Below, piece after piece: positions 1,480 to 20,026 of a DNA stretch of 64,000 bases. Made by a program: the position numbers and the translations under genes. Below the pieces are notes generated by a model. It saw only the letters and a list, made by a program, of their open reading frames with translations. It had not been told where the DNA came from and searched no databases. Every line of letters starts with the position of its first letter. Within the stretch, counting starts at the first letter, position 1. Source of the stretch: Thermodesulfobacteriota bacterium (GTDB lineage Bacteria > Desulfobacterota_D > UBA1144 > Nemesobacterales > UBA2774); assembly GCA_965216785.1 (NCBI GenBank), contig OZ244197.1:96001-160000 (forward strand), written 5' to 3'.

Positions 1480-1643
1480 GTGGGGGGGGGCAGTACACAC
1501 CCTACCCCAGGCGAGCCAAGCTCTACCCGAACGCATATGGGTGGTAAGACTCTCGCCTCGGAACAAATAATCTATGGGTTGTCTATAACAAACTTTAATT
1601 ATAGTCACATATATAAAATCCTATTTTTCTGAGGCAGGTCAAG

Positions 1644-2453: not shown

Positions 2454-2468
2454 TATTATCACATCATG

Positions 2469-2876: not shown

Positions 2877-3064
2877 GAAGTTACATCTCCTTAAATGTCT
2901 GCTAAAGTCTGTTTCTATTTAGAATTAGATTAAAGCCAGAGCTATACAATTACAAGGTGGTTTTCGCTAATTGAGAAATTCCAAAAGGATAAGATATTAA
3001 GGTGAGCTCCGTAGTAGAATCATTTGATACTTAATAACCTAAAATACGGTAGGCCTAAAAGATG

Positions 3065-3478: not shown

Positions 3479-3716
3479 CCCTACAGAGACAGTCCCATGG
3501 TTGTTTGAAAAGTCTAATATCTAGCCTCCTTGAATACAAGGGGTTTCATTGAGATTCATATTTGGAATTTGTGTTTGAATTTGTATAGACTCATACTGCT
3601 TTGTTAAGCTGTTTTTAGGGAGATTAATTTTACCAGCTATTTAATGGGAAGTAGTATACTCAAATCTAGTTGTCATCTATGCTTCAAAAAAGTATAGTTA
3701 ATTTAGGTAATGTTGG

Positions 3717-4184
3717 ATGATAATCAAATATATTCTTATAGCACTAGCTTTGCATATTAGTATTACGATTGCCTATCCCGGAGTTTATGCAAAGGATGCA
3801 AGTATAGATGATTGCAAAGAATTTGTTATCGTATATAACCGATATACCAAAAAGCAGGAAAAACTTTTGACTTTTGATTCTAGAGAAAATATTCCAAATA
3901 TTACTGTAGAAAGGGTCAAGAAAACTCATTATGCTGGAATTGTAATCGGAGACCCGGAAGGGAAAGAGCCGATAGGCATGGTACATGTTGCTGATTGCGA
4001 TTTGTCAAAAGCGATATTAGATAAATCGCCAAAAAAATCATTGATTAATACAAGGACCACTGACATTTTCTATTTACCTACAGAAATAAAAGGATGCTAT
4101 GCTTTTAATGATTTTACTGAAGAGGAACGCAAACTTGGATATTATCAATTGGACTTTGTGAGATGTGAGAGCCTTGAAAAGTAA
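3717..4184 (+). CDS. Hypothetical secreted protein
   Basis: 155-aa ORF with signal-peptide-like N-terminus, 4 Cys. Confidence 0.6.
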   Translation: MIIKYILIALALHISITIAYPGVYAKDASIDDCKEFVIVYNRYTKKQEKLLTFDSRENIPNITVERVKKTHYAGIVIGDPEGKEPIGMVHVADCDLSKAILDKSPKKSLINTRTTDIFYLPTEIKGCYAFNDFTEEERKLGYYQLDFVRCESLEK

Positions 4185-4368
4185 AACTTAACCAAAATTG
4201 AAGACGAAGTATTCATAATGGGGGGGTATAAGCAGAATATTTGGCTACCTTTATTTATTGGTTTTAATGTACACAATTCCAACTTAAATCCTGCTTGACA
4301 AATGGGGAGCAGTAAATTGCTTAATGTTAAGTTAAAGCAATTAATCTGATTCGGAGAGTAATCAGAAA

Positions 4369-5358
4369 TTGACCAAAGGAACTACAAAGGCAAAGAAACG
4401 AAAAGATTCTGCTAAGAAAAAAGAATCTACATCCAAAAGCAAGATTATTCCCAACATAAAACCATATTTGGTCCATCTTTTAGCTAGTGCATTCGAAAAC
4501 GAAACCCTTCAGTTTACAGCTTCAAAGTCAATTGAGTCCTTAGCTAATACAGGGGATATTAAACACTTAAGAACCTTATCCACTATTCCGAGTATTTACC
4601 TAGAAAAAATATTTTGGAAACAGCTCAATGAGTGGAATTATTATGCTTATGATGGTGATAAAAATGCTGAGCTACTATTAGAAACAGTATTTAAAGGCTC
4701 TAGAAATGCGATTATTACATATAAATCCAAGAGAACCGGGAGACCCCCTAAATCGTTGCCTCATGAGATTGCAATTGTAGATGAATATTTCAAGTTACAA
4801 GAAGGACTATTAAAGAACGCAGTTGAGGACGGCCAGAAGAAAGAGATAAGCAAATATTACTCTGACCTCGATAATGGCAAGGTATCCAAAAATGACAAAG
4901 TATTAGCAAAGCAAATCCAAGCAAATATCGAGAGAAGGAAGAGAAATCTAACAGCATTTTTAAGAAAAGAAAAACTAGAAATTTCTAATACTAAAGTCGA
5001 TAAGATGCTTCTTAATTCCAACTCAGAAATATCAATCGAGATACTAGCTTCAAGGCATGGAGTAGGTACTAGAAAGATAAAGGGACTTTTAGCAAAAGAA
5101 GACCCTGATTATAAGTATGTAGTAGATTTTTATTCGCCTGGGTCCACAACTAAAAGGATAGATTATATTAAGTATCGTGTAGAAAGAGTAAAAGCTCGGC
5201 AAGAATCAAATGATGATGATAGCTATTATAGGATTCTGTCCAAAAAACTAGGAGTACCAGTCAAAACGCTCAAAGAACAAAACCCCCATATTCATCCTAC
5301 TACGGTCAGAACTCCCCATATATCTAGAGTCTCATCAAAGTCTCCATCCAAAAAATAA
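4369..5358 (+). CDS. Hypothetical basic protein (possible DNA-binding regulator upstream of xis)
   Basis: 329-aa Lys-rich ORF with GRPPK motif; position typical of satellite regulators. Confidence 0.6.
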   Translation: MTKGTTKAKKRKDSAKKKESTSKSKIIPNIKPYLVHLLASAFENETLQFTASKSIESLANTGDIKHLRTLSTIPSIYLEKIFWKQLNEWNYYAYDGDKNAELLLETVFKGSRNAIITYKSKRTGRPPKSLPHEIAIVDEYFKLQEGLLKNAVEDGQKKEISKYYSDLDNGKVSKNDKVLAKQIQANIERRKRNLTAFLRKEKLEISNTKVDKMLLNSNSEISIEILASRHGVGTRKIKGLLAKEDPDYKYVVDFYSPGSTTKRIDYIKYRVERVKARQESNDDDSYYRILSKKLGVPVKTLKEQNPHIHPTTVRTPHISRVSSKSPSKK

Positions 5359-5386
5359 TTCCCCCATTTCACATCACTACATTTTT

Positions 5387-5422
5387 CGTGTGCGGAAACT
5401 AACCCTTCTATTTCCACACACG
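5387..5422. promoter_or_regulatory. Inverted repeat (operator or hairpin) upstream of the xis-helicase operon
   Basis: CGTGTGCGGAAA-N12-TTTCCACACACG, 11/12 complementary. Confidence 0.45.
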
Positions 5423-5484
5423 GGAATTTTACGCATCCATGTACCTTTATTTTCAAATTATCACAACTCTAAAGGAGTAGACAC

Positions 5485-5703
5485 ATGAATAGTTTGAAAC
5501 CAAGACTTATTGATAGGGAAGAGCTTCTGGAGTTATACCCAGCCCTTGCAAGTAAAGGTAAAAATAAATTTTATCGTCTTCAATGGCTAACCCGTTCTCG
5601 GCAAATTCCGGTAATAAGAATCGGGCGGAGGTTGTATTTTGATGTGACCGAAATTGAAGCCTGGCTTGATAGTAAGAGAGTTCATATCGGAGTAATAGAA
5701 TGA
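5485..5703 (+). CDS. Excisionase/AlpA-like HTH DNA-binding protein
   Basis: 72 aa, IPVIRIGRRLYFD..IEAWL wing motif (HTH_17-like); AAGGAG RBS. Confidence 0.8.
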   Translation: MNSLKPRLIDREELLELYPALASKGKNKFYRLQWLTRSRQIPVIRIGRRLYFDVTEIEAWLDSKRVHIGVIE

Positions 5704-7241
5704 ACCGGTACGGTGAACATAAGAAGGCACCAAAGTTTCAAAAATCACTTTACACTGAAGAGGTGGAGCAGACTGAGATAATTATTCTTGCGGCTCTTAT
5801 TTTTGGGGATTTAGACTTTTCGGAGGTACAAGGTGTGTTAGTTAGTAGAGACTTTTATACTGAAGACCATCAATCTATTTTCAAGGTACTTGAAGAGCTT
5901 TACAGAAAAGGTGAGCCAACTGACATTCTGACTGTCACTAATGGGCTTCGTAATGCTAGAAGAAGTAACGGTCGGGAATGGACACAATACCTTTTGTCTC
6001 TCGATGCTAATGCTCTACCACTTAGCACTAATAATCTGGACTACCATATCCGGAATATTATAACCTTCTCTCGAAAACGAGAGCTTTGCAATGATGCACA
6101 TAATCTTGCTATGGCAGTTTCGAACGATAATCTCGATGATGTGAGAAGCCTTGTTGATGCTATTTCAAATTATCAATATGACGATACGTTTAATGATGTA
6201 CTTATACTCGCTGAACAAGCAATAACTCCTCGGACTTGGCTCTTAGAAGGTGCAATACCGGATGGTTATCCAACAATCATTTATGGGGCTGGTGGTTTGG
6301 GTAAGAGTTTTCTAGCATTACAGCTCGCCATACTCGCGTGCCAAGGAGGACAAAAATTCTTACATCTTAAATTCCCGGAAAAGCCTAAGAATGTCTTACT
6401 AGTAGATTATGAACTTGACGAAAGTGAGCAAGCACGACGTGCTAAGCAAATAGCCAGAGGCTTAAACCTCCCAGACGTACCAATAAATCTACATTACATA
6501 TCACCCGCTCAAGGGCTGGCTAGGTTACTTCCGAAACTCAAAGGATTAATACAATCAAAAGATATTAGGTTCGTTATCATAGACTCCATAGGAGCTTCAG
6601 GAACGGACGGGGAGAGCGTCCAGGATGTTGTGAGCCTACTGACGAAAATTAAAGAACTAGGAGCACCAACACTAGTACTGGACCACCAGAGCAAAATGCA
6701 GTCTGGTGACAAATATGGGAATAAGACCCCGTTCGGCACTGTTTATAAAGAAAACTTATCTCGCTCGGTATTCCAATTGTCCAAGGTTGAGGCAGTGGGT
6801 AATAGGGTAACTCTTAAGCTGAGACATAGAAAAGCAAATTTCAGCAGGCTTCTGGATGACTTGGTATTCGACATGTATTTTGAGGGGGATAGAGTCCTTT
6901 TCACGGAGTCAAATGTTAAATCTGATGAAACCAAGGAGGTTGACTTAGTTGATGCAGCTATCAGGGAGCTTGAAGGAGAGGGAAGAAAAGTCAATCAAGA
7001 TGCTATAAAGGAAAGACTCAAGGGAGTTCTGGCTAAGAATAAGGTTGTATCGATATTAGAAGAAAGGAAGGGAGAACTTTGGGACGAAAAACCGGGTAAC
7101 CGCAAGGAAAAATTATATAAATCTAAAAATCCAAAAAGCGGTTCCCTTAGTAATCAGACTTTTGGACTTTTGGAAAATGAGCGAGATTTTGAGATTCCTC
7201 CCGAGTTGATGGATGATAATGAAGAGCTTGGAGGTTGGTAG
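5700..7241 (+). CDS. Replicative helicase: DnaB-like N-terminal domain plus AAA_25 (RSF1010 RepA-like) ATPase
   Basis: DFY..HQ.IF..L..LYRKGEPTDILTV (DnaB N-term); Walker A GAGGLGKS; VDYE; Walker B VIIDS; LDH. Confidence 0.85.
   Translation: MNRYGEHKKAPKFQKSLYTEEVEQTEIIILAALIFGDLDFSEVQGVLVSRDFYTEDHQSIFKVLEELYRKGEPTDILTVTNGLRNARRSNGREWTQYLLSLDANALPLSTNNLDYHIRNIITFSRKRELCNDAHNLAMAVSNDNLDDVRSLVDAISNYQYDDTFNDVLILAEQAITPRTWLLEGAIPDGYPTIIYGAGGLGKSFLALQLAILACQGGQKFLHLKFPEKPKNVLLVDYELDESEQARRAKQIARGLNLPDVPINLHYISPAQGLARLLPKLKGLIQSKDIRFVIIDSIGASGTDGESVQDVVSLLTKIKELGAPTLVLDHQSKMQSGDKYGNKTPFGTVYKENLSRSVFQLSKVEAVGNRVTLKLRHRKANFSRLLDDLVFDMYFEGDRVLFTESNVKSDETKEVDLVDAAIRELEGEGRKVNQDAIKERLKGVLAKNKVVSILEERKGELWDEKPGNRKEKLYKSKNPKSGSLSNQTFGLLENERDFEIPPELMDDNEELGGW
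7122..7174. promoter_or_regulatory. Putative iteron-type replication origin inside the 3' end of the helicase gene
   Basis: TCTAAAAA TCCAAAAA facing ACTTTTGG ACTTTTGG: two inverted pairs of 8-bp repeats. Confidence 0.5.
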
Positions 7242-7562
7242 ATGAGGTCAGTGCTAACGGAAAAAGACAGGCTTTTGAAACTGACATTAGACGGTATAAC
7301 CAAGAGGTATCCGTCTGGCCTATATGAATGGCTTTTCAAATATAAGATTGAAGTTCATGAGCGTATAATCGAGCTAGAGGACAGGATTGATGAGAATTTC
7401 AACGATAATGGAAGCATACAGGAGCTGAAAGCCCTTTTGAGAGGATACTGGGTAGAGCACATAAAAGCTGAACGGGATTTTGAGCTGAGTGGCAAGCCTG
7501 ATGCATCATTGGAGGAAATAAGGTCTGAAAGGATAGATACGCTAGAGCAAAGGCATGTTTAA
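7242..7562 (+). CDS. Hypothetical protein coupled to helicase
   Basis: 106-aa ORF, stop/start abutting both neighbours. Confidence 0.7.
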   Translation: MRSVLTEKDRLLKLTLDGITKRYPSGLYEWLFKYKIEVHERIIELEDRIDENFNDNGSIQELKALLRGYWVEHIKAERDFELSGKPDASLEEIRSERIDTLEQRHV

Positions 7563-8008
7563 TGAAAAAAAATGAGCTTAGCTTGAAAGATTTTCCGCCG
7601 AAACTGCGAAGACTAGCCCGATTTATGCTCGAAAATGAAGAAAAAAAGACTGTTTCGCATGCTTGTCGAGAGCTTGGTTTCAACAAAAGAAGTATTTTCA
7701 CTATGATTCACCGGTCTAAAAGAAAAGGTCATGATTTCAATGAGTTGCTAGCGGATGTATCAGATTTTTATCTCAAAACAGAGTTGATTAATGTTGATAA
7801 AAAGACCATAGAATGGGCCTTAACAGGCTCGGCTCGGGATAGAGAATTATTTTACAAGCGTATAGGGGTGCTTAAAAACAGCCCCAAGATTGAGATTAAT
7901 AACAATCTAGGGCTTACTTTTGCTGTGAAAGTGGATAACGTGAGCGACTCTAATAAAAGGCCTAAAGGGCAAAATGAATTAAGACCTTATATTCCTAACA
8001 AAAGTTAA
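7562..8008 (+). CDS. Terminase small subunit-like HTH protein (phBC6A51-like)
   Basis: TVSHACRELGFNKRSIF HTH, GSARDRELFYKRIG helix, C-terminal beta tail; follows the rep module. Confidence 0.55.
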   Translation: MKKNELSLKDFPPKLRRLARFMLENEEKKTVSHACRELGFNKRSIFTMIHRSKRKGHDFNELLADVSDFYLKTELINVDKKTIEWALTGSARDRELFYKRIGVLKNSPKIEINNNLGLTFAVKVDNVSDSNKRPKGQNELRPYIPNKS

Positions 8009-8047
8009 AAATACTAATTTACTACTATCGCACTATGTCATGCTTAG

Positions 8048-8641
8048 TTAGAAACTATATTGTTTTGTAATACCGGTTTGTTTAAGTATTTCAGGACGTT
8101 CTGTTTCAATTTCAGTAACATTATCCTCTACTATATCTAATTTTAATTGGTCCCATTCAAAGTTATGTATTTTTACTTGGTCGAACTTAGAGTAAGCAAT
8201 CCAAAAAAAACAACTATCTTTGATATTTTGAGGGAAAAGGAGAGGGTACTTGATAACCTTGTTCTCAAAATTTCCTTGTTTAATTCGTTCTATTCCATTC
8301 CTCCATTCAGAAATGAACACCTCACCTATATCAAAAGATGGATGAATCACAAGATATGAAGGGTTAACAATATGCAGGTCCGTGTCTTTACTATATGCCA
8401 TAATTTCAGCGCGATTATCGACGATGTCAAGAAGGTCATTATTAATAATCTCAACGTAATTATCTCGAACAGCATCACGGTTCAATGATACAATTGAGAC
8501 TACAGCCCAAAATGGTTTATATTTCTTACCCAAATCTACACCAGATATTAGCTCACACCACTCTTCTACAGTATCCACCTCATGGTTCGAACAACTTAAG
8601 AACAGGGAAAATAATATTAATGCAAGGGCAGATTTTTTCAT
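8048..8641 (-). CDS. Hypothetical lipoprotein
   Basis: MKKSAL...FLSC lipobox. Confidence 0.65.
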   Translation of the reverse strand: MKKSALALILFSLFLSCSNHEVDTVEEWCELISGVDLGKKYKPFWAVVSIVSLNRDAVRDNYVEIINNDLLDIVDNRAEIMAYSKDTDLHIVNPSYLVIHPSFDIGEVFISEWRNGIERIKQGNFENKVIKYPLLFPQNIKDSCFFWIAYSKFDQVKIHNFEWDQLKLDIVEDNVTEIETERPEILKQTGITKQYSF

Positions 8642-8735
8642 TATTGTTTTGACCTGTGTCATAATGCCATATCTTATTACATTTTTGTAAAAATATAAAG
8701 GCGGGGAGACAAGAAAAATATTCAGTTATTAGGAT

Positions 8736-8984
8736 GTGTATATTATAATAAATACCGTGACTACTTTAGCGCTTATATTAAAAATCATTGTTTATATATG
8801 GATTGTACTAATACTTATTAATATTGCCATCGTATTGGTAAGAATTGTGTTGGAACAAGGAATATTTCGGTTATGGGAAACTTTAAGCCCTTTTAATCTT
8901 AGCTACTATATTCCTATGTTCATAGCGCTAGCTCCTGGAATGATATTAATATATATTGCAAATAAATTACAAGAACGGGCATAA
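8736..8984 (+). CDS. Small membrane protein (2 TM)
   Basis: 82-aa hydrophobic ORF. Confidence 0.55.
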   Translation: MYIIINTVTTLALILKIIVYIWIVLILINIAIVLVRIVLEQGIFRLWETLSPFNLSYYIPMFIALAPGMILIYIANKLQERA

Positions 8985-9028
8985 AAATGAATTGAAGCAC
9001 AATTAAGAAATAAGTTGATAGAGAAACT

Positions 9029-9835
9029 ATGAAAAAATCAATCCTATTATTGTTAATCGTTTTAATACCAACATTTGCTGTTAGTCAGACGGCTGAAGAG
9101 TATTTTGATTTAAGTCTCAATAAAATTGATAATGGTGATTACTCAGGAGCAATACAAGACTTAAACAAGGCAATAGAGCTTAAACCTAATCAAGATGCAT
9201 ATAGCAATAGAGGACTTGCTAAATCTAAATTAGGTGACAATAGAGGTGCTATTGAGGATTATAACAAGGCTATAGAGTTAGACTCTAAATTTGCTCCGGC
9301 TTATAATAATAGGGGTATGGCAAAGGGTAACCTAGGGGACTACAGTGGTGCAATACTGGATTACAATAAGGCTATAGAGCTAAACCCCCAATTAACTGAT
9401 GCATATGCTGGTAGGGGTGATGCTAAATCTAAATTAGGTGACAATAGAGGTGCTATTGAGGATTATAACAAGGCTATAGAGCTAAACCCTAAATTTGCTT
9501 TAGCATACTACAACAGGGGTCTAGCTAAAGCTAAACTAGGTGACTTTAAAGAAGCTATACAGGATAATAACAAGGCTATAGAGCTAAACCCCAATCTTGC
9601 TTTAGCATACTACAACAGGGGTCTAGCTAAAGCTAAACTAGGTGACTTTAAAGAAGCAATGCAGGATTGGAATAAGGCTATAGAGTTAGACCCTAATCTT
9701 GGTTTAGCATACCTTAACAGGGGTGTCGTTAAGTTAAATAACGGTCAAAATGAATCCGCTTGCCAAGACTTCTCTAAGGCAGGTGAGATGGGTATTAGTC
9801 AAGCTTATGATGTTATAAAGCAATACTGCCAGTAA
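9029..9835 (+). CDS. Secreted tetratricopeptide repeat protein
   Basis: Signal peptide, ~7 TPR units, ACQDFSKAGEMG...YCQ cap. Confidence 0.92.
   Translation: MKKSILLLLIVLIPTFAVSQTAEEYFDLSLNKIDNGDYSGAIQDLNKAIELKPNQDAYSNRGLAKSKLGDNRGAIEDYNKAIELDSKFAPAYNNRGMAKGNLGDYSGAILDYNKAIELNPQLTDAYAGRGDAKSKLGDNRGAIEDYNKAIELNPKFALAYYNRGLAKAKLGDFKEAIQDNNKAIELNPNLALAYYNRGLAKAKLGDFKEAMQDWNKAIELDPNLGLAYLNRGVVKLNNGQNESACQDFSKAGEMGISQAYDVIKQYCQ
9217..9657 (+). repeat. Exact 61-bp intragenic duplications within TPR units
   Basis: 9217-9277 = 9421-9481 (offset 204); 9495-9555 = 9597-9657 (offset 102). Confidence 0.85.
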
Positions 9836-9859
9836 TAATTAGAAATTAAAGAATGCACG

Positions 9860-10081
9860 ATGCTGATAATATTTAGGATAATTTCAATTCCATTTTTCTT
9901 GTTAGCATTCCTGAAATGGATTACATATAATCCTGATTGCAACCCATTTCTAATTGGCGGATGCGGGTTATTAGATATAGGTATTAGTGGAACAATTGCT
10001 ATGGTCATAAATTGGGTAATTATTGTCGTTCTACTTGTAATAGGGGTTTGGTTATGGGATAAGGGGAAAATAAAAAGTTAA
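9860..10081 (+). CDS. Small membrane protein (2 TM, Cys pair in loop)
   Basis: 73-aa hydrophobic ORF. Confidence 0.55.
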   Translation: MLIIFRIISIPFFLLAFLKWITYNPDCNPFLIGGCGLLDIGISGTIAMVINWVIIVVLLVIGVWLWDKGKIKS

Positions 10082-10098
10082 AGAGATTAGAAATAGAG

Positions 10099-11346
10099 AT
10101 GGGAATAGAATGGAATAAAAATTATAATGAGCAACAAATTAAAGTTTTATTAGAAGAAGTGCAAAAAATAAGTTTGAGTCCACTTACACTTGGTATAAAT
10201 TCAGTTATTTGTTCAGCTTTAAAATTCAATGATGAAATTTTTCGTGAAAAAGCTGAAGAACTTGTCATCACTGCAATAAATAATATTGGTAGGAGAAATA
10301 TTAATAGAAATAACATTTTAGTTGAATTGGATAAGTTACAAGGGGAATATATTAGAAAGGCAAAAAAGAATTATCATATAGCCACAAGTATTTCTCTTGC
10401 TACTCAGGACAATATTAATAGTATAAAATGCGATAATGTAAAATTTGATTTCTACAAAACATTCCCTAAGAAATACAAAAGGCAAGCATACTTAAATGAT
10501 AAAAAGCATATTATTAATAGTGTGCTACAAAATCCAAATATCCCTAATAACTACTCGCCTATTATCATTAAAGTTAGAGCTAGAACAGGAGTAGAAGCGG
10601 GTAAAATAGCCTTAGATTACTTAGATTTCATTATTGGAATCTGGAATTTCGCACTGAATTTTCCCAAAGGCCCTACTATGCATTTCAAAGAAATTAAACA
10701 AAATCCAATTAATACAGTACTAAAAGGGCCAATCCATACTATTCACAAACAAAACGGTGATATAGATAATGAAGATTTATTTTTTTATGAAGATGACTAT
10801 TATGGACCGATTCAACCTACTTATATTAATAGTAGGAAATTTCAAGAGATAAAAAATACCGAAATGAGAATTAGGAGACGTCTATCGATTAATAAGAAGT
10901 GGGGTTTAAAAATCAGAGACTCTCTAATTAGATACTCGAGAGCACTTGAAAATTATAATTACTCATATTGTTTCTTGCAACTTTGGAATATTCTGGAATT
11001 TCTTACACGTGCAGAAGAAATAGGAAATCATACAATTACTGTTAAAAAAACAGGGAATTTATTCCATAAAGACGAAGCCGAAATACAAAGAGCTTTGATA
11101 GATTTCCTAAGAATTACCAGAAATTCATTAGTACATTCAAGTCAATTCCAATCAGGTGTAAAAAAGATGGACATCACACATCAGCTCAAATTTTATGTTG
11201 AAGAATTAATCCGGTATCACTATGCAGCAATTAAAATTTTTGATAATTTTAATCAAGCTCTCAATTATTTAGATTTGCCGTATGACGAAAAAGAGATTAA
11301 AAGTAGATTAAAAGTCTTAAAGGTATTTTCTAAAAATAGATTGTGA
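10099..11346 (+). CDS. ApeA-like HEPN-domain protein (putative RNase, anti-phage)
   Basis: C-terminal FLQLWNILEFL helix followed by RNSLVH (Rx4H) motif; very low GC. Confidence 0.7.
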   Translation: MGIEWNKNYNEQQIKVLLEEVQKISLSPLTLGINSVICSALKFNDEIFREKAEELVITAINNIGRRNINRNNILVELDKLQGEYIRKAKKNYHIATSISLATQDNINSIKCDNVKFDFYKTFPKKYKRQAYLNDKKHIINSVLQNPNIPNNYSPIIIKVRARTGVEAGKIALDYLDFIIGIWNFALNFPKGPTMHFKEIKQNPINTVLKGPIHTIHKQNGDIDNEDLFFYEDDYYGPIQPTYINSRKFQEIKNTEMRIRRRLSINKKWGLKIRDSLIRYSRALENYNYSYCFLQLWNILEFLTRAEEIGNHTITVKKTGNLFHKDEAEIQRALIDFLRITRNSLVHSSQFQSGVKKMDITHQLKFYVEELIRYHYAAIKIFDNFNQALNYLDLPYDEKEIKSRLKVLKVFSKNRL

Positions 11347-11649
11347 CCTGTATACTGCTCCTCTTTTGTTAAGCCCAGTTATAGTTGGAATTATTAAGAA
11401 TGCGAATGCTTCCTAGCTATTATGACAAGCTCCTGCATAGGGTTTTCTGTAAAAAATCTAACTTAACTTATGGTCCTACTAAGGAGGGTGGCAGGTCAGG
11501 GGTTTGACAATAAAGCCTATAGACTATGTATCTGTTTCTAAGTAATTTTTTAGAAGCAATGAGAAAATGAGAAGAGTCATTCTGTATATAGTATTATTTT
11601 TTTGTAATCTAGCTTAAACAAATGAATAAAGCCTATGTTTATTAGGTTA

Positions 11650-12266
11650 TTACTGGCAATACTTCTTGATTAAATCATAGGCATCCATATACCCTAGCTC
11701 ACCCGCTTTAGACAGGTCTAGACAGCCAGAATCTTTTTGACCTAGATTTATTTTAGCACCAGCTCTGTTGTAGTATGCCAGTGCACCTTTAGGGTCTAAC
11801 TCAATAGCCACGTTACAGTCTTGTATCGCTCCTCTGTTATCACCTAGATTTATTTTAGCACACACATTCTAGAGTAATCGTTAGCAGCCAGAGCATCAAA
11901 ATTAGGATTAAGTTCAATAGCTTTTTTACAATCCTGTATTACTCCCAAATCGTCACCTAAACCTGATTTGGAAATAGCCCTAATTTGATAAGCTAACATC
12001 AGGAATAAATTATAGTAATCAGTAATATTAGGATATGGATAATCTATTATTATTTGCTCAACAATATCAATCGCTTTGTTGCAGTTTTGTATTGCTCCTC
12101 TGTAATCTTTTTTTAGAGACATTCTTATTGCACTATTCCTTAAACGTGTGGCCTAGATTTCTTTGTCCCGCACCTCTTCTCTTATTATCTGGAATTGTTC
12201 AATAGTCTCGGCAAGAGCTAACTCAAGTGTTATCAATATCAATAAAAGAAGGATTGATTGTCTCAT
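11650..12266 (-). pseudogene. Secreted TPR protein pseudogene
   Basis: ATG 12266 gives signal peptide MRQSILLLLILITLELALA; in-frame TAG at 12155-12153; frameshift near 11865; intact GCLDLSKAGELG...YCQ cap. Confidence 0.8.
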
Positions 12267-12448
12267 ACTTATCCCATTATATTATTTTCTCTCTTAATTG
12301 TTATCCCACAGTCTTCTCTGGTTCTCTCTAGCATCCGCTCTGCTTCTGTGGACAGCTCCTGATATTTGATAATGTACTGCCCCCCATAATAGGTCCATAA
12401 GTAAAGTTTGGTTTTAGAAAAATGGAGCGGTACAAAAACTGATGTGCG

Positions 12449-12486
12449 TTGACTATGTTAGAATATGTAAGTATAATATACTTACA
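12449..12486 (+). promoter_or_regulatory. Sigma70 promoter with overlapping perfect palindromic operator
   Basis: TTGACT-17-TATAAT; TGTAAGTATA-a-TATACTTACA (12466-12486) covers the -10. Confidence 0.8.
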
Positions 12487-12699
12487 GTGACAGCAAAAAG
12501 ATTAAGAACTAAAATGTTTCAGGTTTGGCTGCATCCGAAAGAGTATGAGTTTCTAAATACATATGCCAAAGAAAATATGATGACAGCGTCCGAGATAGTA
12601 CGCGGATGGATACACGAAGTCATGAAACGGGAAGGGCTTGTGATTAAGGAGCCTTCTCTTCCGGAGCTCTCAAAAACTAAAAAGGGGGTTAAGAATTAA
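12487..12699 (+). CDS. Ribbon-helix-helix (CopG-like) regulator coupled to integrase
   Basis: FQVWL..KEYEFL..YA....TASEIVR pattern; probable near-leaderless GTG; TAATG overlap with int. Confidence 0.65.
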   Translation: MTAKRLRTKMFQVWLHPKEYEFLNTYAKENMMTASEIVRGWIHEVMKREGLVIKEPSLPELSKTKKGVKN

Positions 12700-13772
12700 T
12701 GGGGAGTGTATATCTGAGAGGTAATTCATATGTAGGCCAGTATAGAGATAGGGGCAGAATAGTACAGAAGACATTAGGGAAAAAAGGGGTAATTACAAAA
12801 ACAGCAGCTCGGGCAATTCTAGCGAAGCTGGAGGAAGCAGTCATGCTGAAGAAATACGACTTGCTCGATGCCGATATTCCCACCTTGAATGAATTTGCAA
12901 GTGAATATATTAAACATGGCAAAGAAGTATTAAAGAAGAGGTCATGGGAACGTGACATATATGGATTAAGACAGTTCAAAGAACACTATGGCAATCGCTT
13001 ACTTTCTGAAATAACATCTAGGAACATAGATGATTTCAAGAAGATTAGACTTAAAGCTGTCTCAACTGGTACTGTGAACAGGGAGCTACAATGTATTAGA
13101 AGTCTCTTCAATCTAGCTAAACGTTGGAAAAGATTTTTTGGTAATAACCCAGTTAGCGAAGCCAGACTTATACAGGTTAATAACCAAAAAGAGCGCATAC
13201 TTTCAAAGGAAGAAGAGGATAGACTTCTGGCACTCTCTAATCCTTACCTCAAGCCGATTCTGATTACAGCTTTAAACACTGGTATGAGGAAAAATGAGAT
13301 ACTTACCCTAAAGTGGACAAATATTGACCGAGATACTAGTGTGATAACACTGGAACATACCAATACTAAAACTAAAACAACTAGGCGGATACCTATAAAC
13401 TCCGTTCTTAGAAAGCTATTATTAGAGCAAATGCTTAAGTCAGGTGGTAATGAATTTATTTTTCTTAACCCGACGGGTAATCCATATAAACGACATGACT
13501 CAATTAAAGGAGCATTCGAAAGACTTTGTAAAAAGGCTGGTGTAACAGGACTCCGTTTCCATGACCTTAGGCATACCGCTGCGACTAGAATGATAGAAGC
13601 AGGAGCGTCTATTGTGGCCGTGAGTAAAATTCTTGGACACTCAGATATTAAAATGACTATGCGTTATACACATCCCGATACTTCCCTAAAAGAAGCCGTA
13701 GAATTGCTGACAAAACCTATTATTTCCGAGCCAACTACTGACATATCCACTGACAATGAAGAAATGGGTTAA
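12699..13772 (+). CDS. Tyrosine recombinase/phage integrase (element B)
   Basis: TGMRKNEIL, HDLRHTAAT, ILGHSDIKMTMRY. Confidence 0.95.
   Translation: MGSVYLRGNSYVGQYRDRGRIVQKTLGKKGVITKTAARAILAKLEEAVMLKKYDLLDADIPTLNEFASEYIKHGKEVLKKRSWERDIYGLRQFKEHYGNRLLSEITSRNIDDFKKIRLKAVSTGTVNRELQCIRSLFNLAKRWKRFFGNNPVSEARLIQVNNQKERILSKEEEDRLLALSNPYLKPILITALNTGMRKNEILTLKWTNIDRDTSVITLEHTNTKTKTTRRIPINSVLRKLLLEQMLKSGGNEFIFLNPTGNPYKRHDSIKGAFERLCKKAGVTGLRFHDLRHTAATRMIEAGASIVAVSKILGHSDIKMTMRYTHPDTSLKEAVELLTKPIISEPTTDISTDNEEMG
13736..13756 (+). promoter_or_regulatory. Putative arm-type integrase sites, right end of element B
   Basis: Tandem ACTGACA with 12-bp period, same as 1459-1479. Confidence 0.7.
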
Positions 13773-13802
13773 TGTGCTCCGAACGAAAGTGCCCGTAAAA
13801 AG

Positions 13803-13880
13803 TGGTCGGGGTGGCCGGACTTGAACCGGCGGCCTCTGCGTCCCGAACGCAACGCTCTAGCCAATCTGAGCTACACCCCG
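13803..13880 (-). tRNA. tRNA-Pro (anticodon CGG), intact, CCA encoded
   Basis: CGGGGTGTAGCTCAGATTGGCTAGAGCGTTGCGTTCGGGACGCAGAGGCCGCCGGTTCAAGTCCGGCCACCCCGACCA folds as a cloverleaf. Confidence 0.97.
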
Positions 13881-13895
13881 TATTAAAGACTCAAT

Positions 13896-13924
13896 ATTTT
13901 ACCTAGTAAACATGACTTTTCTAG
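13896..13924 (-). promoter_or_regulatory. Putative element-supplied promoter for the intact tRNA-Pro
   Basis: TAAAAT (13901-13896) 15 nt upstream of tRNA +1; weak -35 (CTAGAA/TAGAAA). Confidence 0.5.
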
Positions 13925-13940
13925 GCCAATTAAGACTCTA

Positions 13941-13961
13941 TAGTTAGACAATGGTAAGACA
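13941..13961 (+). promoter_or_regulatory. Putative arm-type integrase sites, left end of element C
   Basis: TAGTTAGACA-a-TGGTAAGACA; same motif and 11-bp period at 19872-19892. Confidence 0.65.
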
Positions 13962-14553
13962 CCATAACCTACTATATTTCCTATGTAAGTATCTATTATA
14001 ACATAATATTCTCTATAAAGATAGTACTAGACACTACTAGAACTAGACTCATTTGAGTACATATTTGACTTGGCTAGTCAATAAGTTTCCTTTAATCTTC
14101 TACTATATTTAGAGGTAAGAGAATAGTGTCTCAGAGTGTTATAAACACTCATAATAGTAGGACTAATGGACTCTATATGACTATATGGTAATAATGGTGC
14201 TAGTCATAGTCTACAGTTGTACTCATAGAGCAATATTGGCTACTATAGACCCCCCTAGAAGACCCATAGGGGTACCTCTACACCACACAATATTCCAGCA
14301 TAGTACTCTTATGTGACCCCCATGATAATGAGGCTAGCTAAGTCCCCCACACACATATAAAATTATCAATAGACCCAGCTAGAAACATATATGACAATAT
14401 GCTCTTTTACTGTTCCCATAGTAAACATGAGAGCAGTTGGGCTTATGAATAGTACCAATAAATAATCCAACTTAAACTATGGAACTAATACCAACATCCG
14501 AACAATGACGATAATAGCTATTTTCGCTGCAGTCTTTCATTATTTTGACACTC

Positions 14554-14745
14554 TCAATCGATTGAAAAACAGTAACCAGATGGTTCAAAGTTCTTCTTGC
14601 CACATACACAACCAGAACCGCACATTGAGTGAGAAAAACACTTACCGGTAAAGCAGATACCAGCGAAGCAAGGCTTTGTCATATACACATAACCGGATAC
14701 TGCAACTGCTATTATAAAAACTCCAATCAAAATATATTTAATCAT
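14554..14745 (-). CDS. Small secreted Cys-rich peptide, cystine-knot-like
   Basis: GGAGG RBS, signal peptide, mature part with C-x4-C-x5-C-x3-C-x-C-x10-C. Confidence 0.7.
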   Translation of the reverse strand: MIKYILIGVFIIAVAVSGYVYMTKPCFAGICFTGKCFSHSMCGSGCVCGKKNFEPSGYCFSID

Positions 14746-15227
14746 TATGCACCTCCATTTATAAGTGTTAAAGCCTACAATAGCCTATTATACATATATC
14801 TCCGTTTTCCAGAAAGCTGTATACTTTGATATACCAACTCAGCCTTTAGGAATATTCTCTTATAACTAGTTGATTTAGCCGTCTCCGACCTGTTATCCAA
14901 TTCTGTCAACTTGCATAAAAAAACTAATAATATCTTTATATTACGTATCCATGTCCACTATACGAGGGTCTAGTACTTATATTAAATATTGACCCTAGAA
15001 AATTACCAGTGATGAGTATTACGTAACTTACTCATATCACTGCATATTATCATTTAGGCACATCTATAATTTGCACTATGAGTCATTTACTGAGAAATAG
15101 TTGCTATAGACCTACAGAGATAATGGTTCAATTGAGACCTATCCACCCCATATCCAAGTGGATAAACTGTCACAAACACTAATACATAGTATATACTTTC
15201 TATTGTATAAATACTACAAATTACCTA

Positions 15228-15256
15228 TTGACATTTGATAGATTATCAGGTTCAAT
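15228..15256 (+). promoter_or_regulatory. Putative polB promoter with palindrome in spacer
   Basis: TTGACA-17-TTCAAT; TGATA-gat-TATCA at 15236-15248. Confidence 0.4.
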
Positions 15257-15375
15257 GGTTTTTAACAAGACGTAGAATTATAGACCTAAACATAAATCAA
15301 GATAATCCAATGATAATAGTATCTTAGACCATGGTTTCGCAGATAGATCAATCTATGGCTCTGGAGTGATTAATA

Positions 15376-17643
15376 ATGAATGAATTAGAACTCAGTAGGA
15401 TAGATGATTCCAAGTACAATAGTGTAATAACCCCAGTAAAACGTGAAAAGAAGATACATGAGAACCCACTTATAATAGGATTTGATGCTAACTTATATCC
15501 TTATAAAGGAATGTTTCAGTATCTATCTCTGTCTTTCCATGTTGATGGGGAAACCAGAAGGTACTTTGCCAACGATATATATTATCCTTATAACACACCG
15601 CATACATGCAACGGTAAATACACTATAAAACTTCTTTCAGATTATATCTTTCATTTCCTTTCTGAACTTAAAATTGAATATGATTCAGACTGCATTTACC
15701 TCATAACCCATAATGCAAATGATGAATTAAGCCATTTTGATATATCTAAGAACTACAAACTAAAACCTATAGGTAAGGGTTTATGTTTAGAAGGCACAAT
15801 TAATAACACACTTCTAAATAAAGATCTCAAGCTCAGAATAATTGATATTTATAGCCTTATAAATAAAAGTCTCAAAGATATAGGCAATTATATAGGTATA
15901 CATAGAGTCACATGTAATGAGTTGTTTGAAAGACTTAAGGAATTGAGATTTGAGAATTTAGACATAAGCCAATTATTTGATGACGATATATTCGGGAATG
16001 ACTGCTTAATGGATGCTGAAATAACTTTTGAGGCATTCACGAGACTCAGGTTATTCTTTGTAGAAAATCATAATGTAGACATGCTCAACTTCTATTCACT
16101 CCCCTCACTAGCTGGATACATATTCCAGAGAGATCATATTAATAAACCAACTGTAAGATCAAAAACTATTAAAGAGGCTAGGAAGCAAAAGAAAACTCTT
16201 TCAGATGGTGATGAAAAATATTACGATGTTCCTCAGAAAAAAGAGATATTCAATGGTGATCTTAATGTTAGAAAATGTTCCATGTTGGCCTATCATGGAG
16301 CAAGGATAGAAACTTTCTGCAGAGGCCGGTTTGAAGACAAAAGACTCATATATTACGATGTAGATTCTCTATATCCTTCATCTTCCATACTACAGCCATT
16401 ACCAGTGGCTAATACTAGATGGGTTAACTACAATAAAAGAAACGCTGAAAAGTTTCTTAACCAAGCTGAGGGTTTCGTCGAGGTAGAGTTTAGCTATTCA
16501 CCTGAAACATTTTATCCATGCCTGCCTGTGTCTGGTCTAAGGGATAATATTCTATATTTCCCCCTATCTGGAATAACTTACTGCACTATTTCTGAGCTTA
16601 GAATGGCTATTAAGCTAGGTCTCAGTGATTATATGATTCTTTCAGGTTATTGTTTCTATCCTACCAAAAGAGAAAAGCAACACCCCCTAGCCAGCTTCAT
16701 GAATGACATGCTTGAGAGGAAGCAAAATTCTGAGAAGGGAAGTCTTGAATATATCATGTATAAAATGCAAATGAACTCCCTTGTTGGCAAGCTGGTACAA
16801 AGGGATAAGAACAATGAGACATTAGGAATGTTACATGAAGGCAGTATTTCCAGGGATGTATATGGGAGGGTTGATAATTATAGGAAAGCCAAGGTCGGTT
16901 CTCTGTGGTATCCGGAATGGGCTTCTCTAATTTTAGGAAAAGCTAGAGCCTTAATGTCTGAATTTATATGTAAGGGCACATATTTTATCTCCTCTGATTC
17001 CGTATTGTTACCAAAAGACATAGATATAAATTGTGATTCACTGGACGAATTAAGAAGTGTAGGAAGCAATCTCAGGAAAGAACATGATGTTGACCATGGA
17101 CTAATCATAAGAGCTAGATTGTATGCTCTAAATCCTCTAAATGAAAACCCTAGGCAAAGACATTTAGCTAGGCATGCTGTATCGTGTAAACCTGAAGAGT
17201 TTCGGAATATTATGATCGAGGGATATAAGACTAGAAACATTCCTGACATGTCGTTCACTTCTAAGAAAGCTGTTAAGTATGAAAAATCCATACTAGAAGG
17301 AAAACATTTAAACTCTATGGAAAAGAAGGAATCCAGTATTGAAATAAAATGGGATGGAAAGAGAAGACTATTTAAGGAAGTGGAGAATCCATTCTGTGAC
17401 TTTAGTTGGAGTAGAGCACTAGATGCCAAGGAAGTAGAAAACAATGATATGAGAAGACCTCCTAAACTGAAACCTGGAAGAAAGCAAGGTAAGAAGCTCG
17501 ATACTCCAAAGAAAAGGGACATTGTTAGACTATATAAGGAAGGCAAGAAACAAAAAGAAATAGCTAAGGAATTGGGTATATCCAAAGGATATGTAAGTAA
17601 GGTGTTCAAAGAATTTAATTTGAGTTATCGGGACTTGAACTAA
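15376..17643 (+). CDS. Family B DNA polymerase, primer-independent (piPolB)-like, with C-terminal HTH
   Basis: IGFDAN, YHGARIE, YDVDSLYPS, YPCLPV...FPLSG, KMQMNSLVGK, ISSDS, WDGKR motifs; C-terminal KQKEIAKELGISKGYVSK HTH. Confidence 0.88.
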   Translation: MNELELSRIDDSKYNSVITPVKREKKIHENPLIIGFDANLYPYKGMFQYLSLSFHVDGETRRYFANDIYYPYNTPHTCNGKYTIKLLSDYIFHFLSELKIEYDSDCIYLITHNANDELSHFDISKNYKLKPIGKGLCLEGTINNTLLNKDLKLRIIDIYSLINKSLKDIGNYIGIHRVTCNELFERLKELRFENLDISQLFDDDIFGNDCLMDAEITFEAFTRLRLFFVENHNVDMLNFYSLPSLAGYIFQRDHINKPTVRSKTIKEARKQKKTLSDGDEKYYDVPQKKEIFNGDLNVRKCSMLAYHGARIETFCRGRFEDKRLIYYDVDSLYPSSSILQPLPVANTRWVNYNKRNAEKFLNQAEGFVEVEFSYSPETFYPCLPVSGLRDNILYFPLSGITYCTISELRMAIKLGLSDYMILSGYCFYPTKREKQHPLASFMNDMLERKQNSEKGSLEYIMYKMQMNSLVGKLVQRDKNNETLGMLHEGSISRDVYGRVDNYRKAKVGSLWYPEWASLILGKARALMSEFICKGTYFISSDSVLLPKDIDINCDSLDELRSVGSNLRKEHDVDHGLIIRARLYALNPLNENPRQRHLARHAVSCKPEEFRNIMIEGYKTRNIPDMSFTSKKAVKYEKSILEGKHLNSMEKKESSIEIKWDGKRRLFKEVENPFCDFSWSRALDAKEVENNDMRRPPKLKPGRKQGKKLDTPKKRDIVRLYKEGKKQKEIAKELGISKGYVSKVFKEFNLSYRDLN

Positions 17644-17741
17644 TCACTATTTTATCTTCAATCTATCTTCACAATATGAGTCTAGTATATGTATCTAAAT
17701 ATAAGTTTGAAAAGTAGTGTGAATTTCTATAACTTAATAAT

Positions 17742-18521
17742 ATGATTTGTAAATCGGAACAATGTGGAAAGGAAATACCCAATAACTCAATATATTGCCC
17801 ATCTTGTGGTCATATTGTTGGCAACCAACCGCATAAAGTAATAGATGTAATTTATAGAAGTGGTATTTCAGAATTTAACGAAAATACAAGAATAAATCTA
17901 ATATTTAGTAGACATGATGTAGAGTTCCAAGAAAAACCCAAACTAAGTTTCCTAACAAATAAATTACACGAACCCAAGTATGTACTTTCTATAGATAATA
18001 TTAAAAGTGTCAAATTTTATGGAAGCACGGGAACAACTGCAATTAATACAGCAAACGGTGAAATAGTACTGTCAGAAAGACAATTTAGACTTTATGAAAT
18101 TTTTAGTCAATTATCAAATATTCCTTCAGATACTGTAGATGAGATTAAATCACCTCCATCGGATGCACCAGATTTACTTAAGTTCGTATGTATATCCCTA
18201 ATACTATTATCTCTTTTTGGCCTAAAACGATTCTTTAATAATGTAGGTAAAATTGATTTTAGCGATAATGCAAGTTTTGTATTAGGATTTTTTCTGAGCT
18301 TGCCAACTTTTATTTTGTTGATTCTGTCTTGCTACAAAATATTGCGAGGAAGAAAATGGGCATCATATTGTGCTCAAGTACTACTTGCCTTTTTTATATT
18401 GATAGCTTATCTAGAGTTTAAACTATCCCTTTTGGGAATATTAATAATCATAATCATATCAATTGTAATCTTTTATTTGAATACAAGAAAAGTAAAAGAC
18501 TATCTAAGGGATAAAAACTAA
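17742..18521 (+). CDS. Zinc-ribbon membrane protein
   Basis: N-terminal CKSEQCG...YCPSCG; four C-terminal TM segments. Confidence 0.75.
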   Translation: MICKSEQCGKEIPNNSIYCPSCGHIVGNQPHKVIDVIYRSGISEFNENTRINLIFSRHDVEFQEKPKLSFLTNKLHEPKYVLSIDNIKSVKFYGSTGTTAINTANGEIVLSERQFRLYEIFSQLSNIPSDTVDEIKSPPSDAPDLLKFVCISLILLSLFGLKRFFNNVGKIDFSDNASFVLGFFLSLPTFILLILSCYKILRGRKWASYCAQVLLAFFILIAYLEFKLSLLGILIIIIISIVIFYLNTRKVKDYLRDKN

Positions 18522-18545
18522 TTAAGCCTGTTTGTTATGGATTGA

Positions 18546-18731
18546 CCTAAATTTTATAAGTCCTTACAGTTCGCTAATTCAGTTAGAGCTAAATATCCTG
18601 AAGCATACTTCCGTAGGGGTATAGAACGAATAAGCATCAGTCAGATAGAAACTAGCTGTCTAGATCTCTCAAAATCAGGTGAATTAGGATTTTTCCAAAC
18701 CTGCGATTATATAAAAGAAATATGCCAATAA
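18546..18731 (+). pseudogene. Remnant C-terminus of a TPR protein
   Basis: Frame reads KYPEAYFRRG...SCLDLSKSGELGFFQTCDYIKEICQ*, preceded by in-frame TGA; not in the ORF track. Confidence 0.75.
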
Positions 18732-18744
18732 TCAAAACTACATT

Positions 18745-19788
18745 TCACTCTCTTTTATTTAGCCAGGGCAATCTAGACACGGTCTTTTTCTTATAATCGT
18801 TTGACACATGAGAGTAAATCATAGTAGTAGAAATACTAGAATGTCCGAGTAGTTCCTTAATAGAAACTAGGTCAACCTGATTCATGACTAAATGTGATGC
18901 AAAAGTATGTCTTACTGAGTGAGGGGTAGCTTTTATTCCGGCTTTAGAACATGCTTTATTGAAGCTGTTCTTAATACTCGTAACCCTAGAACCATCAGGG
19001 TGACAGATTAGATAGTTTTTCTGGTCAGCATGTCTAATTGAGACCTGCATTGATTTGGGATGTACATAGTACTTACTCAACCATTCTAACATTTCACTTA
19101 ACTCATAATTGATAGGAACTATCCTGTAGTTGCTAGTCTTCTGACTTTTCACTATGATCACATTATTCTCCAGGTCTATATCAGTGAATTTAAGCTGTAA
19201 TACCTCTCCTATCCTCATGCCGGTATTCCTTAGAACTATTATTATAGGTCTGAGCCATGCACTAGAGCACTCTAATAGACGCTGAACTTCTTCAATAGAT
19301 AGAAAGTTAGGTGGTCTTTTTGGTAGCTTTAAAATAGTAATATGAGGCACTTTTTCAATAAAGTTCCACTCTAATGCCTTTTTTAGTATGGCACTAAGAA
19401 CTGTAAGTTCTCTATTGAGACTAGAAGGAGCCAACCCTTGATCTATTCTGATAGATTTATAATCCTCAATGCATTTATTATCTATCTTCGCTAGACTCAA
19501 ATTACCAAATGAAATCTTGAGATGTTTGATGGCCTGAATTTCTCTTTTATATGTGGATTTCGCCTTATTGGTTTTACAATATTTCAGGTATTGATCTATA
19601 TAGTCATAAAAGAGTATTTCTTTAGTCTCTCTAATGTCTAACCTACCCTTTATATGTTCCAGTTCCAATTGCTTTAGAATCTTTCTGGCTTCCTTCTTAT
19701 CTACTCTCCCAATTCTAATCCACTTCTTCTTTCTATTAATACTGAATACGGCATAATAAGAATTATGTTTGTATGCTAATGAAGCCAT
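18745..19788 (-). CDS. Tyrosine recombinase/phage integrase (element C)
   Basis: TGMRIGEVL, HSVRHTFAS, LLGHSSISTTMIY; AGGAGG RBS. Confidence 0.95.
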   Translation of the reverse strand: MASLAYKHNSYYAVFSINRKKKWIRIGRVDKKEARKILKQLELEHIKGRLDIRETKEILFYDYIDQYLKYCKTNKAKSTYKREIQAIKHLKISFGNLSLAKIDNKCIEDYKSIRIDQGLAPSSLNRELTVLSAILKKALEWNFIEKVPHITILKLPKRPPNFLSIEEVQRLLECSSAWLRPIIIVLRNTGMRIGEVLQLKFTDIDLENNVIIVKSQKTSNYRIVPINYELSEMLEWLSKYYVHPKSMQVSIRHADQKNYLICHPDGSRVTSIKNSFNKACSKAGIKATPHSVRHTFASHLVMNQVDLVSIKELLGHSSISTTMIYSHVSNDYKKKTVSRLPWLNKRE

Positions 19789-19852
19789 AGCATGCCTCCT
19801 GAAGTTGATTCACAGGAAGGTCCTTCAGTAGATGGTGGGTTTTAACATTATC

Positions 19853-19892
19853 TGGTAAGTCTAGGGCTGTTTGGTTAGAACATGGTTAGACA
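19853..19892 (+). promoter_or_regulatory. Putative arm-type integrase sites, right end of element C
   Basis: TGGTAAGTCT, TGGTTAGAAC, TGGTTAGACA. Confidence 0.65.
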
Positions 19893-19970
19893 GCCTTGGC
19901 CTTAACTGGACTAGGAACCATATAACATATTGTACTTACTAGGTATTTTAGGTGGGTCTAAGGTGGTATA

Positions 19971-20017
19971 CTCTGCGTCCCGAACGCAACGCTCTAGCCA
20001 ATCTGAGCTACACCCCG
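19971..20017 (-). repeat. att site: 5' fragment (47 nt) of tRNA-Pro
   Basis: Identical to 13834-13880; lacks the T-arm, acceptor 3' strand and CCA. Confidence 0.95.
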
Positions 20018-20026
20018 TGAGCATTT

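Follow-up and report, generated by a model that had tools for sequence, protein, structure and literature searches.

A tRNA-integrated 6.2-kb element whose polymerase appears to belong to a sister lineage of piPolB and carries a predicted DNA-binding domain

The DNA considered here (the window) is a stretch of 64,000 nucleotides from a Thermodesulfobacteriota bacterium, contig OZ244197.1, positions 96,001 to 160,000, and within it lies an integrated element of 6,185 bp (about 6.2 kb) whose polymerase gene an earlier note had read as that of a divergent primer-independent family-B DNA polymerase (piPolB) in an unusually small pipolin with one recombinase. We argue that the enzyme, judged from its sequence, is a member of a separate sister lineage of piPolB and not a piPolB. 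The element sits in tRNA-Pro, has a 48-bp repeat at each end (48 identical bases, equal to nucleotides 1–47 of tRNA-Pro(cgg), with a spacing of 6,137 bp between copies) and has a G+C content of 34.4% against 46% for the genome. Between these attachment (att) copies lie a mostly noncoding stretch of 1.5 kb with an open reading frame (ORF) for a Cys-rich protein of 63 amino acids (aa), the polymerase with its C-terminal helix–turn–helix (HTH), a zinc-ribbon membrane protein and an integrase. What kind of polymerase is this, and how might so small an element use it to be copied? The features, in window positions, are these:

13803–13880, minus strand: intact tRNA-Pro(cgg), the integration target (ARAGORN, Rfam)
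13834–13881, no strand: left att copy, 48 bp, the 5′ 47 nt of the tRNA (exact repeat)
13943–13961, plus strand: putative integrase arm-type sites, GTTAGACA repeats
14083–14126, no strand: conserved 44-bp noncoding motif, candidate origin or HTH-binding site (from conservation)
14554–14745, minus strand: 63-aa Cys-rich cargo protein with a hydrophobic N-terminus (ORF)
15376–17643, plus strand: family-B DNA polymerase with C-terminal HTH, 755 aa (ORF, Pfam, model, fold match)
15463–16140, plus strand: 3′–5′ exonuclease domain with a degenerate active site (D37-A-N39; E117 and D213 kept; Exo III Tyr lost)
16159–16251, plus strand: long predicted beta-hairpin, Exo III to YxGG (model, spacer lengths)
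16357–17124, plus strand: polymerase core, with motifs A, B and C, a TPR1-like region and a 40-aa segment at the TPR2 position
17476–17619, plus strand: GRK arm and three-helix HTH (Hin/resolvase-like) on a low-confidence linker (Pfam, model)
17742–18521, plus strand: zinc-ribbon membrane protein, cargo (similar zinc-ribbon proteins in related loci L003 and L005)
18745–19788, minus strand: tyrosine integrase, 347 aa (family match, catalytic residues)
19971–20018, no strand: right att copy, 48 bp, the orphan 5′ half of the tRNA (exact repeat, Rfam)

The sole integrase is of the tyrosine type, with its R..H..R..H..Y catalytic residues present, and the integrase and the att direct repeats at a tRNA are traits that the element shares with pipolins. 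Arm-site-like sequence occurs again near 19874–19892, and in related loci L004 and L005 exact 19-bp pairs lie immediately inside both element ends. In Pfam and NCBIfam the three other ORFs of the element matched no primase, terminal protein or virion gene (terminal proteins being too divergent for full exclusion), and nothing within the element matched Cas1. The polymerase gene is found in 6 of 120 genomes of the phylum, the pattern expected for a mobile gene. Contigs from two runs on one sample, possibly the source (X1 and X4), are identical to 13852–20000. Read depth on the element is 82.9 against 88.2 and 80.0 on its flanks (272.7 against 268.8 and 282.2 in the second run), which gives no sign of extra element copies and is not a copy-number measure; no att joint is listed in the read data of the two runs, and no RNA run containing the element is listed.

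All of the motif blocks that the earlier note quoted are indeed present in the 755-aa ORF: IGFDAN (34–39), THNANDE (111–117), IIDIY (155), DCLMDAE (209–215), YHGARIE (306), the canonical motif A DVDSLYP (328–334), YPCLPV (380), FPLSG (395), KGSLEY (454), NSLVGKLVQ (467), ISSDS (538–542), RARLY (579–583), HLARHAV (596) and WDGKR (659). The core residues are D328 and Y333 in motif A, K463, N467 and V470-G-K in motif B, D541 in motif C, and then E569 and R579-A-R581-L-Y583. Pfam places DNA_pol_B_2 on the protein (E 5e-20) and HTH_23 at 712–748 (E 9e-7, above its cut-off), and matches in the Atlas are to generic DNA_pol_B_2 clusters only. Structure prediction gave an AlphaFold model (pLDDT 86.6, from a 32-sequence alignment) with a phi29-like fold and a three-helix HTH; its best match among solved structures is the phi29 DNA polymerase (E 3e-14) and among viral models the His1 protein-primed polymerase (pPolB). 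That fold carries inserts at the TPR1 and TPR2 positions, the segment at TPR2 being predicted helical. A sequence search of solved structures found no match for the window polymerase (P0001) or for E. coli piPolB.

A piPolB is defined by the motifs SxTTDG and KH-X8-KTRG, with K613 needed for priming, and by its place in a distinct clade (PMC5695915; statements from this and the other papers cited here rest on parts of their text). The window polymerase has ISSDS for the first and RARLY for the second, and in the scored family to which it belongs TTDG stands in 1 of 170 rows and KTRG in 0 of 164. Where the note saw in RARL a counterpart of KTRG, the letters are there, and we think them better read as a variant of the KxY motif with its Tyr retained, as in 145 of 164 family rows, than as a worn KTRG. 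At the K613 position stands E569, a Glu also found in phi29, GA-1, PRD1 and Bam35.

The tree points the same way. Our piPolB reference was that of E. coli H10407 (L085, 866 aa), whose K613, K623 and R625 match the numbering of PMC5695915, joined by plasmid-borne homologues, of which those of Fusobacterium and Helicobacter were assigned here by motifs and BLAST. (These plasmids, L001, L096 and L098, encode piPolB-type polymerases, the Fusobacterium ones lacking the motif B Tyr.) The sampling of piPolBs is limited because the search with the E. coli protein listed near-identical copies only. The careful tree took 49 of 65 aligned rows (the other 16 were dropped to save computing time or because they were partial) and 522 columns and contained six piPolBs and 14 pPolBs, with long branches and no RNA-primed outgroup; casposon polymerases were represented only by His1/His2, their sister group (PMC4046053). 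The piPolBs form one clade (support 100/99), the HTH family and a clade of short polymerases form another (100/100), and the two join each other at 100/99 against all 14 pPolBs, so that the grouping with classical pPolBs by which the note would have been refuted is not seen. Separate trees of the two domains agree (supports 98 for the exonuclease and 94 for the polymerase). Because both signature motifs fail and the tree gives a separate sister clade, the window polymerase reads as a sister of piPolB; piPolB is its nearest named group, and what the note had right was the neighborhood, not the membership.

How much of this is private to one odd protein? A word search yielded 41 proteins and a profile search 502 representatives at E ≤ 1e-30, 150 of which were among the matches listed, and motifs were scored on 180 family rows, leaving out P0040 (a true piPolB by its motifs) and P0041 (a classical pPolB). 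The catalytic residues are nearly invariant: motif A Asp in 170 of 171 rows, motif B Lys in 170 of 171 and the second motif C Asp in 169 of 170. The motif B Tyr is kept in 2 of 171, Ile (102) and Val (58) standing in its place; the final Gly of motif C is found in 19 of 170, and the first motif C Asp, one of the two in the classical pPolB YxDTDS, in none of 170 (His1/His2 and others also vary there). An HTH scores at least 15 bits in 54 of the 88 rows of at least 700 aa and in 0 of the 46 rows of 570–680 aa; several homologues match PF02796 or PF13384, and the HTH weakly matches a DNA invertase PHROG. Because these counts are family-wide, the motif B and C changes that the note took for peculiarities of one protein define a family, and the appended HTH, of Hin/resolvase type (Hin/sigma-like in the note), is likewise no peculiarity. 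For the one unsaturated pair, with related locus L002, polymerase domain and HTH each have a ratio of nonsynonymous to synonymous substitution (dN/dS) of 0.08; the remaining five pairs are at or near saturation of synonymous sites, and there the proportion of synonymous differences in the polymerase domain (0.73–0.84) exceeds that of nonsynonymous ones (0.17–0.29). This pattern of substitution indicates purifying selection on the polymerase. Private decay of polymerase domain and HTH, the note's other route to refutation, is ruled out by the family-wide changes, the distribution of the HTH and the low dN/dS.

Of all these changes, the loss in the exonuclease alone is local. Exo I reads D37-A-N39, with the Exo I Glu and Exo III Tyr missing, and Exo II E117 and Exo III D213 are kept, so that Exo II and III, called degenerate in the note, are so only in part. 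DxE is retained in 130 of 142 family rows; it is lost in P0001–P0006 and P0009 and, separately, in the L094 protein (P0045), the Myxococcus loci, P0093 and L077. The branch to P0001 is 1.60 in the exonuclease-only tree against 0.53 for P0011 (0.44 against 0.24 in the polymerase-only tree). Among P0001–P0006, identity is 35–47% in the exonuclease for 14 of 15 pairs and 61–82% in the polymerase, and in intact pairs (the 25 closest of 66) it is 39–58% and 56–65%. From these sequences the domain in the P0001 subclade looks relaxed, not lost, and since DxE is gone and the exonuclease branch is long, the window copy has likely lost proofreading, as the note had supposed. The pair P0001–P0002 shows the reverse of the other subclade pairs (87% identical in the exonuclease, 78% in the polymerase), possibly a trace of recombination between elements.

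The best-conserved noncoding piece outside the att and arm sites is the 44-bp motif at 14083–14126, inside the region (13881–15375) where the note had proposed a mobility shift assay of the HTH. It is identical at 41–42 of 44 positions in L003, L004 and G021, where the L003 and L004 polymerases are 58% and 49% identical to P0001. Among 120 genomes of the phylum its pattern turns up in four, exactly the four family-f1 polymerase carriers, and is absent from the other 116; the reversed pattern, as a control, gave one match. It is single-copy in the host genome, it lies at a distance of 0.6–1.25 kb from where the polymerase begins, it is placed differently with respect to the small gene in different elements, and the viral contigs gave no match to it. 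As a hairpin it has no stable fold (z +1.3, +1.1, −1.4, +1.5), as an RNA it has no Rfam match except the tRNA, as a peptide it has no conserved reading frame across it, and a promoter scan stayed at chance (10 against 7.3 ± 2.9). The simplest reading, from conservation, makes it a candidate origin or HTH site.

Related elements repeat the plan. Among 59 loci examined for ends, an exact repeat of 45–62 bp flanks the polymerase in 15, and 14 of these overlap a called tRNA. The delimited elements span 3.4–8.7 kb, occur in bacteria and archaea and share a common plan; loci without such ends are mostly short contigs. The polymerase is broken in the 3.4-kb L044. Integrases are phage-type in bacterial members and of the split archaeal type in L006 (titled Bathyarchaeota) and similar contigs, which also carry a small CcdA-like ORF. 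Cargo genes differ from element to element, with TPR proteins, a trypsin-like protease and a radical SAM enzyme among their products, and the cargo ORFs scanned in delimited elements, not every ORF among them, gave no match to primase, helicase, Rep or capsid families. With two kinds of integrase in use among related elements, what stays constant is the polymerase gene. The 63-aa Cys-rich protein has homologues in L003 and L004 and none seen in L005; it appears membrane-anchored, with the pattern PC(F/L)AGIC..KC..S..C...C.C.K and no family above cut-off. Records titled Spirochaetia contain L003 and L005, whose genomes share the family or order of the window host; the titles look unreliable. 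The polymerase–HTH gene at L094:10483–14249, exonuclease-degenerate, has on one side a type I restriction locus that includes an insertion sequence and on the other an AAA ATPase; tRNA-Pro(cgg) is close by, and no integrase is seen. The L075 polymerase, a distant member of the family, lies within 20-bp direct repeats 2.4 kb apart. In the window, a neighboring element of about 12.6 kb (about 1268–13851; repeat at 1273 and 13803) occupies the 3′ half of the same tRNA-Pro, with an integrase (12699–13772), TPR cargo and an ORF (5700–7241) resembling a DnaB-N/AAA helicase. There is also a third integrase (183–1370), and the repeat recurs 18.8 kb upstream of the window; together they suggest that elements stand in tandem at this one tRNA.

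The short polymerases have other company. They occur on two virus-like contigs, L077 and L009 (12–15 kb, tectivirus-like), both with a packaging ATPase; L077 also encodes an endolysin and a probable capsid protein, which matches a head-protein PHROG and has a weak match to the Toil coat protein (E 7e-5). In both an unassigned basic ORF of 193–238 aa directly precedes the polymerase, the place that the terminal protein gene takes in PRD1; the L077 ORF, a putative terminal protein, has no Pfam, PHROG or Atlas match. L009 lies in a record titled Methanobacterium, and no terminal inverted repeat is seen at its ends. No further contexts for the short clade were found in viral contigs, and a cluster look-up gave no useful names, so that its viral nature rests on these two. 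One can imagine the whole family as a link from protein-primed viral polymerases to the primer-independent piPolBs, the short form serving tectivirus-like viruses and the HTH form replicating minimal integrative circles in bacteria and archaea, where it would find its own origin and start DNA synthesis unaided, so that a single chain would hold replicase, origin-binding initiator and primase; this is an idea that we think rather unlikely.

How, then, might the element be copied? We propose that the sister-lineage polymerase replicates the excised element as a circle, guided, on our prediction, by its HTH to an origin that the element itself carries, a reading to which we would give an even chance. 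The integrase would recombine the att copies to free a circle of 6,137 bp; the HTH would bind it, most likely at 14083–14126; and the phi29-type core would copy it by strand displacement, probably without proofreading in the window copy and its six closest relatives, where the exonuclease domain would be kept as a scaffold. Because the element shows no terminal protein, the polymerase itself most likely makes the primer, as piPolB does, and we hold this tentatively, at something short of an even chance. The carriers include a Bathyarchaeota record and bacteria, and the primases of archaea and bacteria are unrelated, which favors priming independent of the host. That the primer comes instead from an outside 3′-OH (host primase, transcript or nick) we regard as doubtful, yet a real contender.

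Several observations weigh against this proposal, which is built from sequence and models. Where piPolB has K613, the Lys tied to de novo priming (PMC5695915), the 23 proteins scored among P0001–P0024 all have Glu or Gln, like phi29, and of 71 HTH-bearing rows 44 have Glu there and just 12 have Lys. The segment at the TPR2 position is 19 aa in P0007, P0008 and P0010, which would weaken strand displacement. Many of the delimited elements are close kin (L006, L035, L036, L038–L041) and do not make 15 independent cases; in the long L094 and L055 the available DNA shows neither an integrase nor an att pair; and the 44-bp motif is degenerate in the family-f7 carrier G056 (27 of 44), without a match in the f7 carrier G066 and not found in the archaeal elements. 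Two more, a nuclease-like domain that points to nick priming in an archaeal subclade and a primase gene, lead to the first alternative.

In that alternative the enzyme is the element's replicase and needs an outside 3′-OH, supplied by host primase or a transcript at the 44-bp site or by a nick, which in the archaeal subclade a fused PD-(D/E)xK-like domain would make. The pPolB-type Glu at the K613 position and the widely kept KxY Tyr suit it. So does the archaeal subclade (L006:4830–5636, L035–L043), whose polymerases have a 250-aa N-terminal domain, with H80, D94 and K96 invariant in 8 of 8, that has Hjc, Hje and fusellovirus D212 nucleases as its top four structural matches and may, on its model, be a nickase fused to the polymerase; and an AEP primase gene (PF22548; L075:20–856) lies about 850 bp upstream of the more distant relative. 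These matches are weak (Z 5.3–5.9; root-mean-square deviation 3.0–3.9 over 74–78 residues), the model is poor (pLDDT 46.7) and a Z below 8 may reflect a common arrangement; the window protein has no such domain; and the family is present in two domains of life. We judge this account unlikely, if worth keeping in view.

Could the enzyme simply be a divergent piPolB within a small pipolin? The family shares with piPolB the Exo II [SA]HF, YAxRDA, the loss of the first motif C Asp, the HARAG/RHG and (F/W)DxKR blocks and a long hairpin spacer from Exo III to YxGG (90–95 residues in the family, 75–93 in piPolB, about 63 in the short clade, 45–72 in pPolBs), and the plan of the element is like that of pipolins. 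On a substitute profile built from seven piPolB sequences, the best family member scores 153 bits, near the weakest held-out piPolB (held-out range 155–269). Against this, P0001 itself scores 71 bits (pPolBs at most 42), the TTDG and KTRG counts are as given above, 755 aa falls below the 800-aa cut for full piPolBs (PMC11551731), and a tree constrained to join piPolB with the HTH clade, leaving the short clade outside, fails the approximately unbiased (AU) test (p = 0.014, 24 rows). We find it improbable; the element is small, tRNA-integrated and served by one integrase, as the note said, and with no piPolB, the sole hallmark of pipolins, it is not a pipolin.

Quite improbable, too, is a polymerase that serves low-fidelity repair, gap filling or defense in place of replication, with the HTH as an autorepressor: the repeated loss of the exonuclease would fit it, as would the damage-tolerance role suggested for piPolB itself (PMC5695915), but the polymerase stays constant while integrases and cargo change, DxE is kept in most relatives, and the 44-bp motif is distant for an operator. 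Protein priming by an unrecognized or borrowed terminal protein, for instance from a helper virus, is very improbable: the nearest relatives, the virus-like L077 and L009, with their basic upstream ORF and the pPolB fold matches speak for it, and excision by a tyrosine integrase, which would leave a circle without ends, and the lack of a conserved gene upstream of the polymerase across elements speak against it.

Where does this leave the element among known systems? The literature search, with subscription papers outside it, found no description of an HTH-fused PolB element or of a piPolB sister clade (the comparison also took in parts of PMC7544198, PMC6563490, PMC11071308 and bioRxiv 2020.04.24.059261), and the portion of the PMC11551731 supplement searched has no Bathyarchae-, Myxococc-, Thermodesulfo-, Dadabacteria or archaeon entry, a control term being present. 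The element is apparently a new lineage of pipolin-like element, and its polymerase lineage apparently undescribed. With pipolins it has in common a hallmark PolB, here probably of the TPR1/TPR2 type, the tyrosine integrase, a tRNA as target, flanking direct repeats, the absence, as far as seen, of genes for a primase or terminal protein, the lost motif C Asp, the style of the exonuclease domain and the hairpin spacer. It differs in motif A (DxxSLYP here, DLxxAY-type in piPolB), motif C (xTDS for TTDG), RxRLY for KTRG, Glu for K613, a motif B Tyr nearly always replaced by Ile or Val, and the C-terminal HTH. Pipolins are near 20 kb, the 3′ end of a tRNA is the site of 99.8% of them, and no more than nine archaeal hits are reported in the parts of PMC11551731 used here, whereas the elements here span 3.4–8.7 kb, are common on archaeal contigs, and in the window duplicate the tRNA 5′ half. 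Those nine hits could be members of the HTH-polymerase family.

The pPolBs (phi29, PRD1, Bam35, Toil, His1/His2, ABV) share the overall fold, the canonical motif A, the KxY Tyr, the Ser after the catalytic motif C Asp and the Glu ten residues before the KxY Tyr, yet they replicate linear genomes that have inverted ends and a terminal protein, and the window element has direct att repeats, is carried by an integrase and is presumably a circle when free. Family 1 casposons (PMC4046053) are likewise integrated prokaryotic elements with a pPolB-type polymerase, in archaea, but their integrase is Cas1, where we find one of the tyrosine type, and they have terminal inverted repeats and a gene for a putative terminal protein; their polymerase is sister to His1/His2, which fall outside the clade of the window polymerase, casposon sequences themselves not being in the tree. 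The Hin/resolvase HTH offers the same GR-arm followed by three helices, here fused to a DNA polymerase and predicted, from sequence, to bind DNA.

A replicative polymerase that carries a sequence-specific DNA-binding domain of its own would make for an unusual replicon of one gene, and the 44-bp motif offers a concrete candidate substrate. Because pPolB and piPolB motifs occur side by side in the sister clade, some of its members having an intact exonuclease and others a dead one, and the priming position being Glu in some and Lys in others, the clade makes testable the question of how protein-primed ancestors might have given rise to the primer independence of piPolB, and it extends pipolin-like elements to the archaea, where they had been reported as negligible (PMC11551731, in the parts used here).

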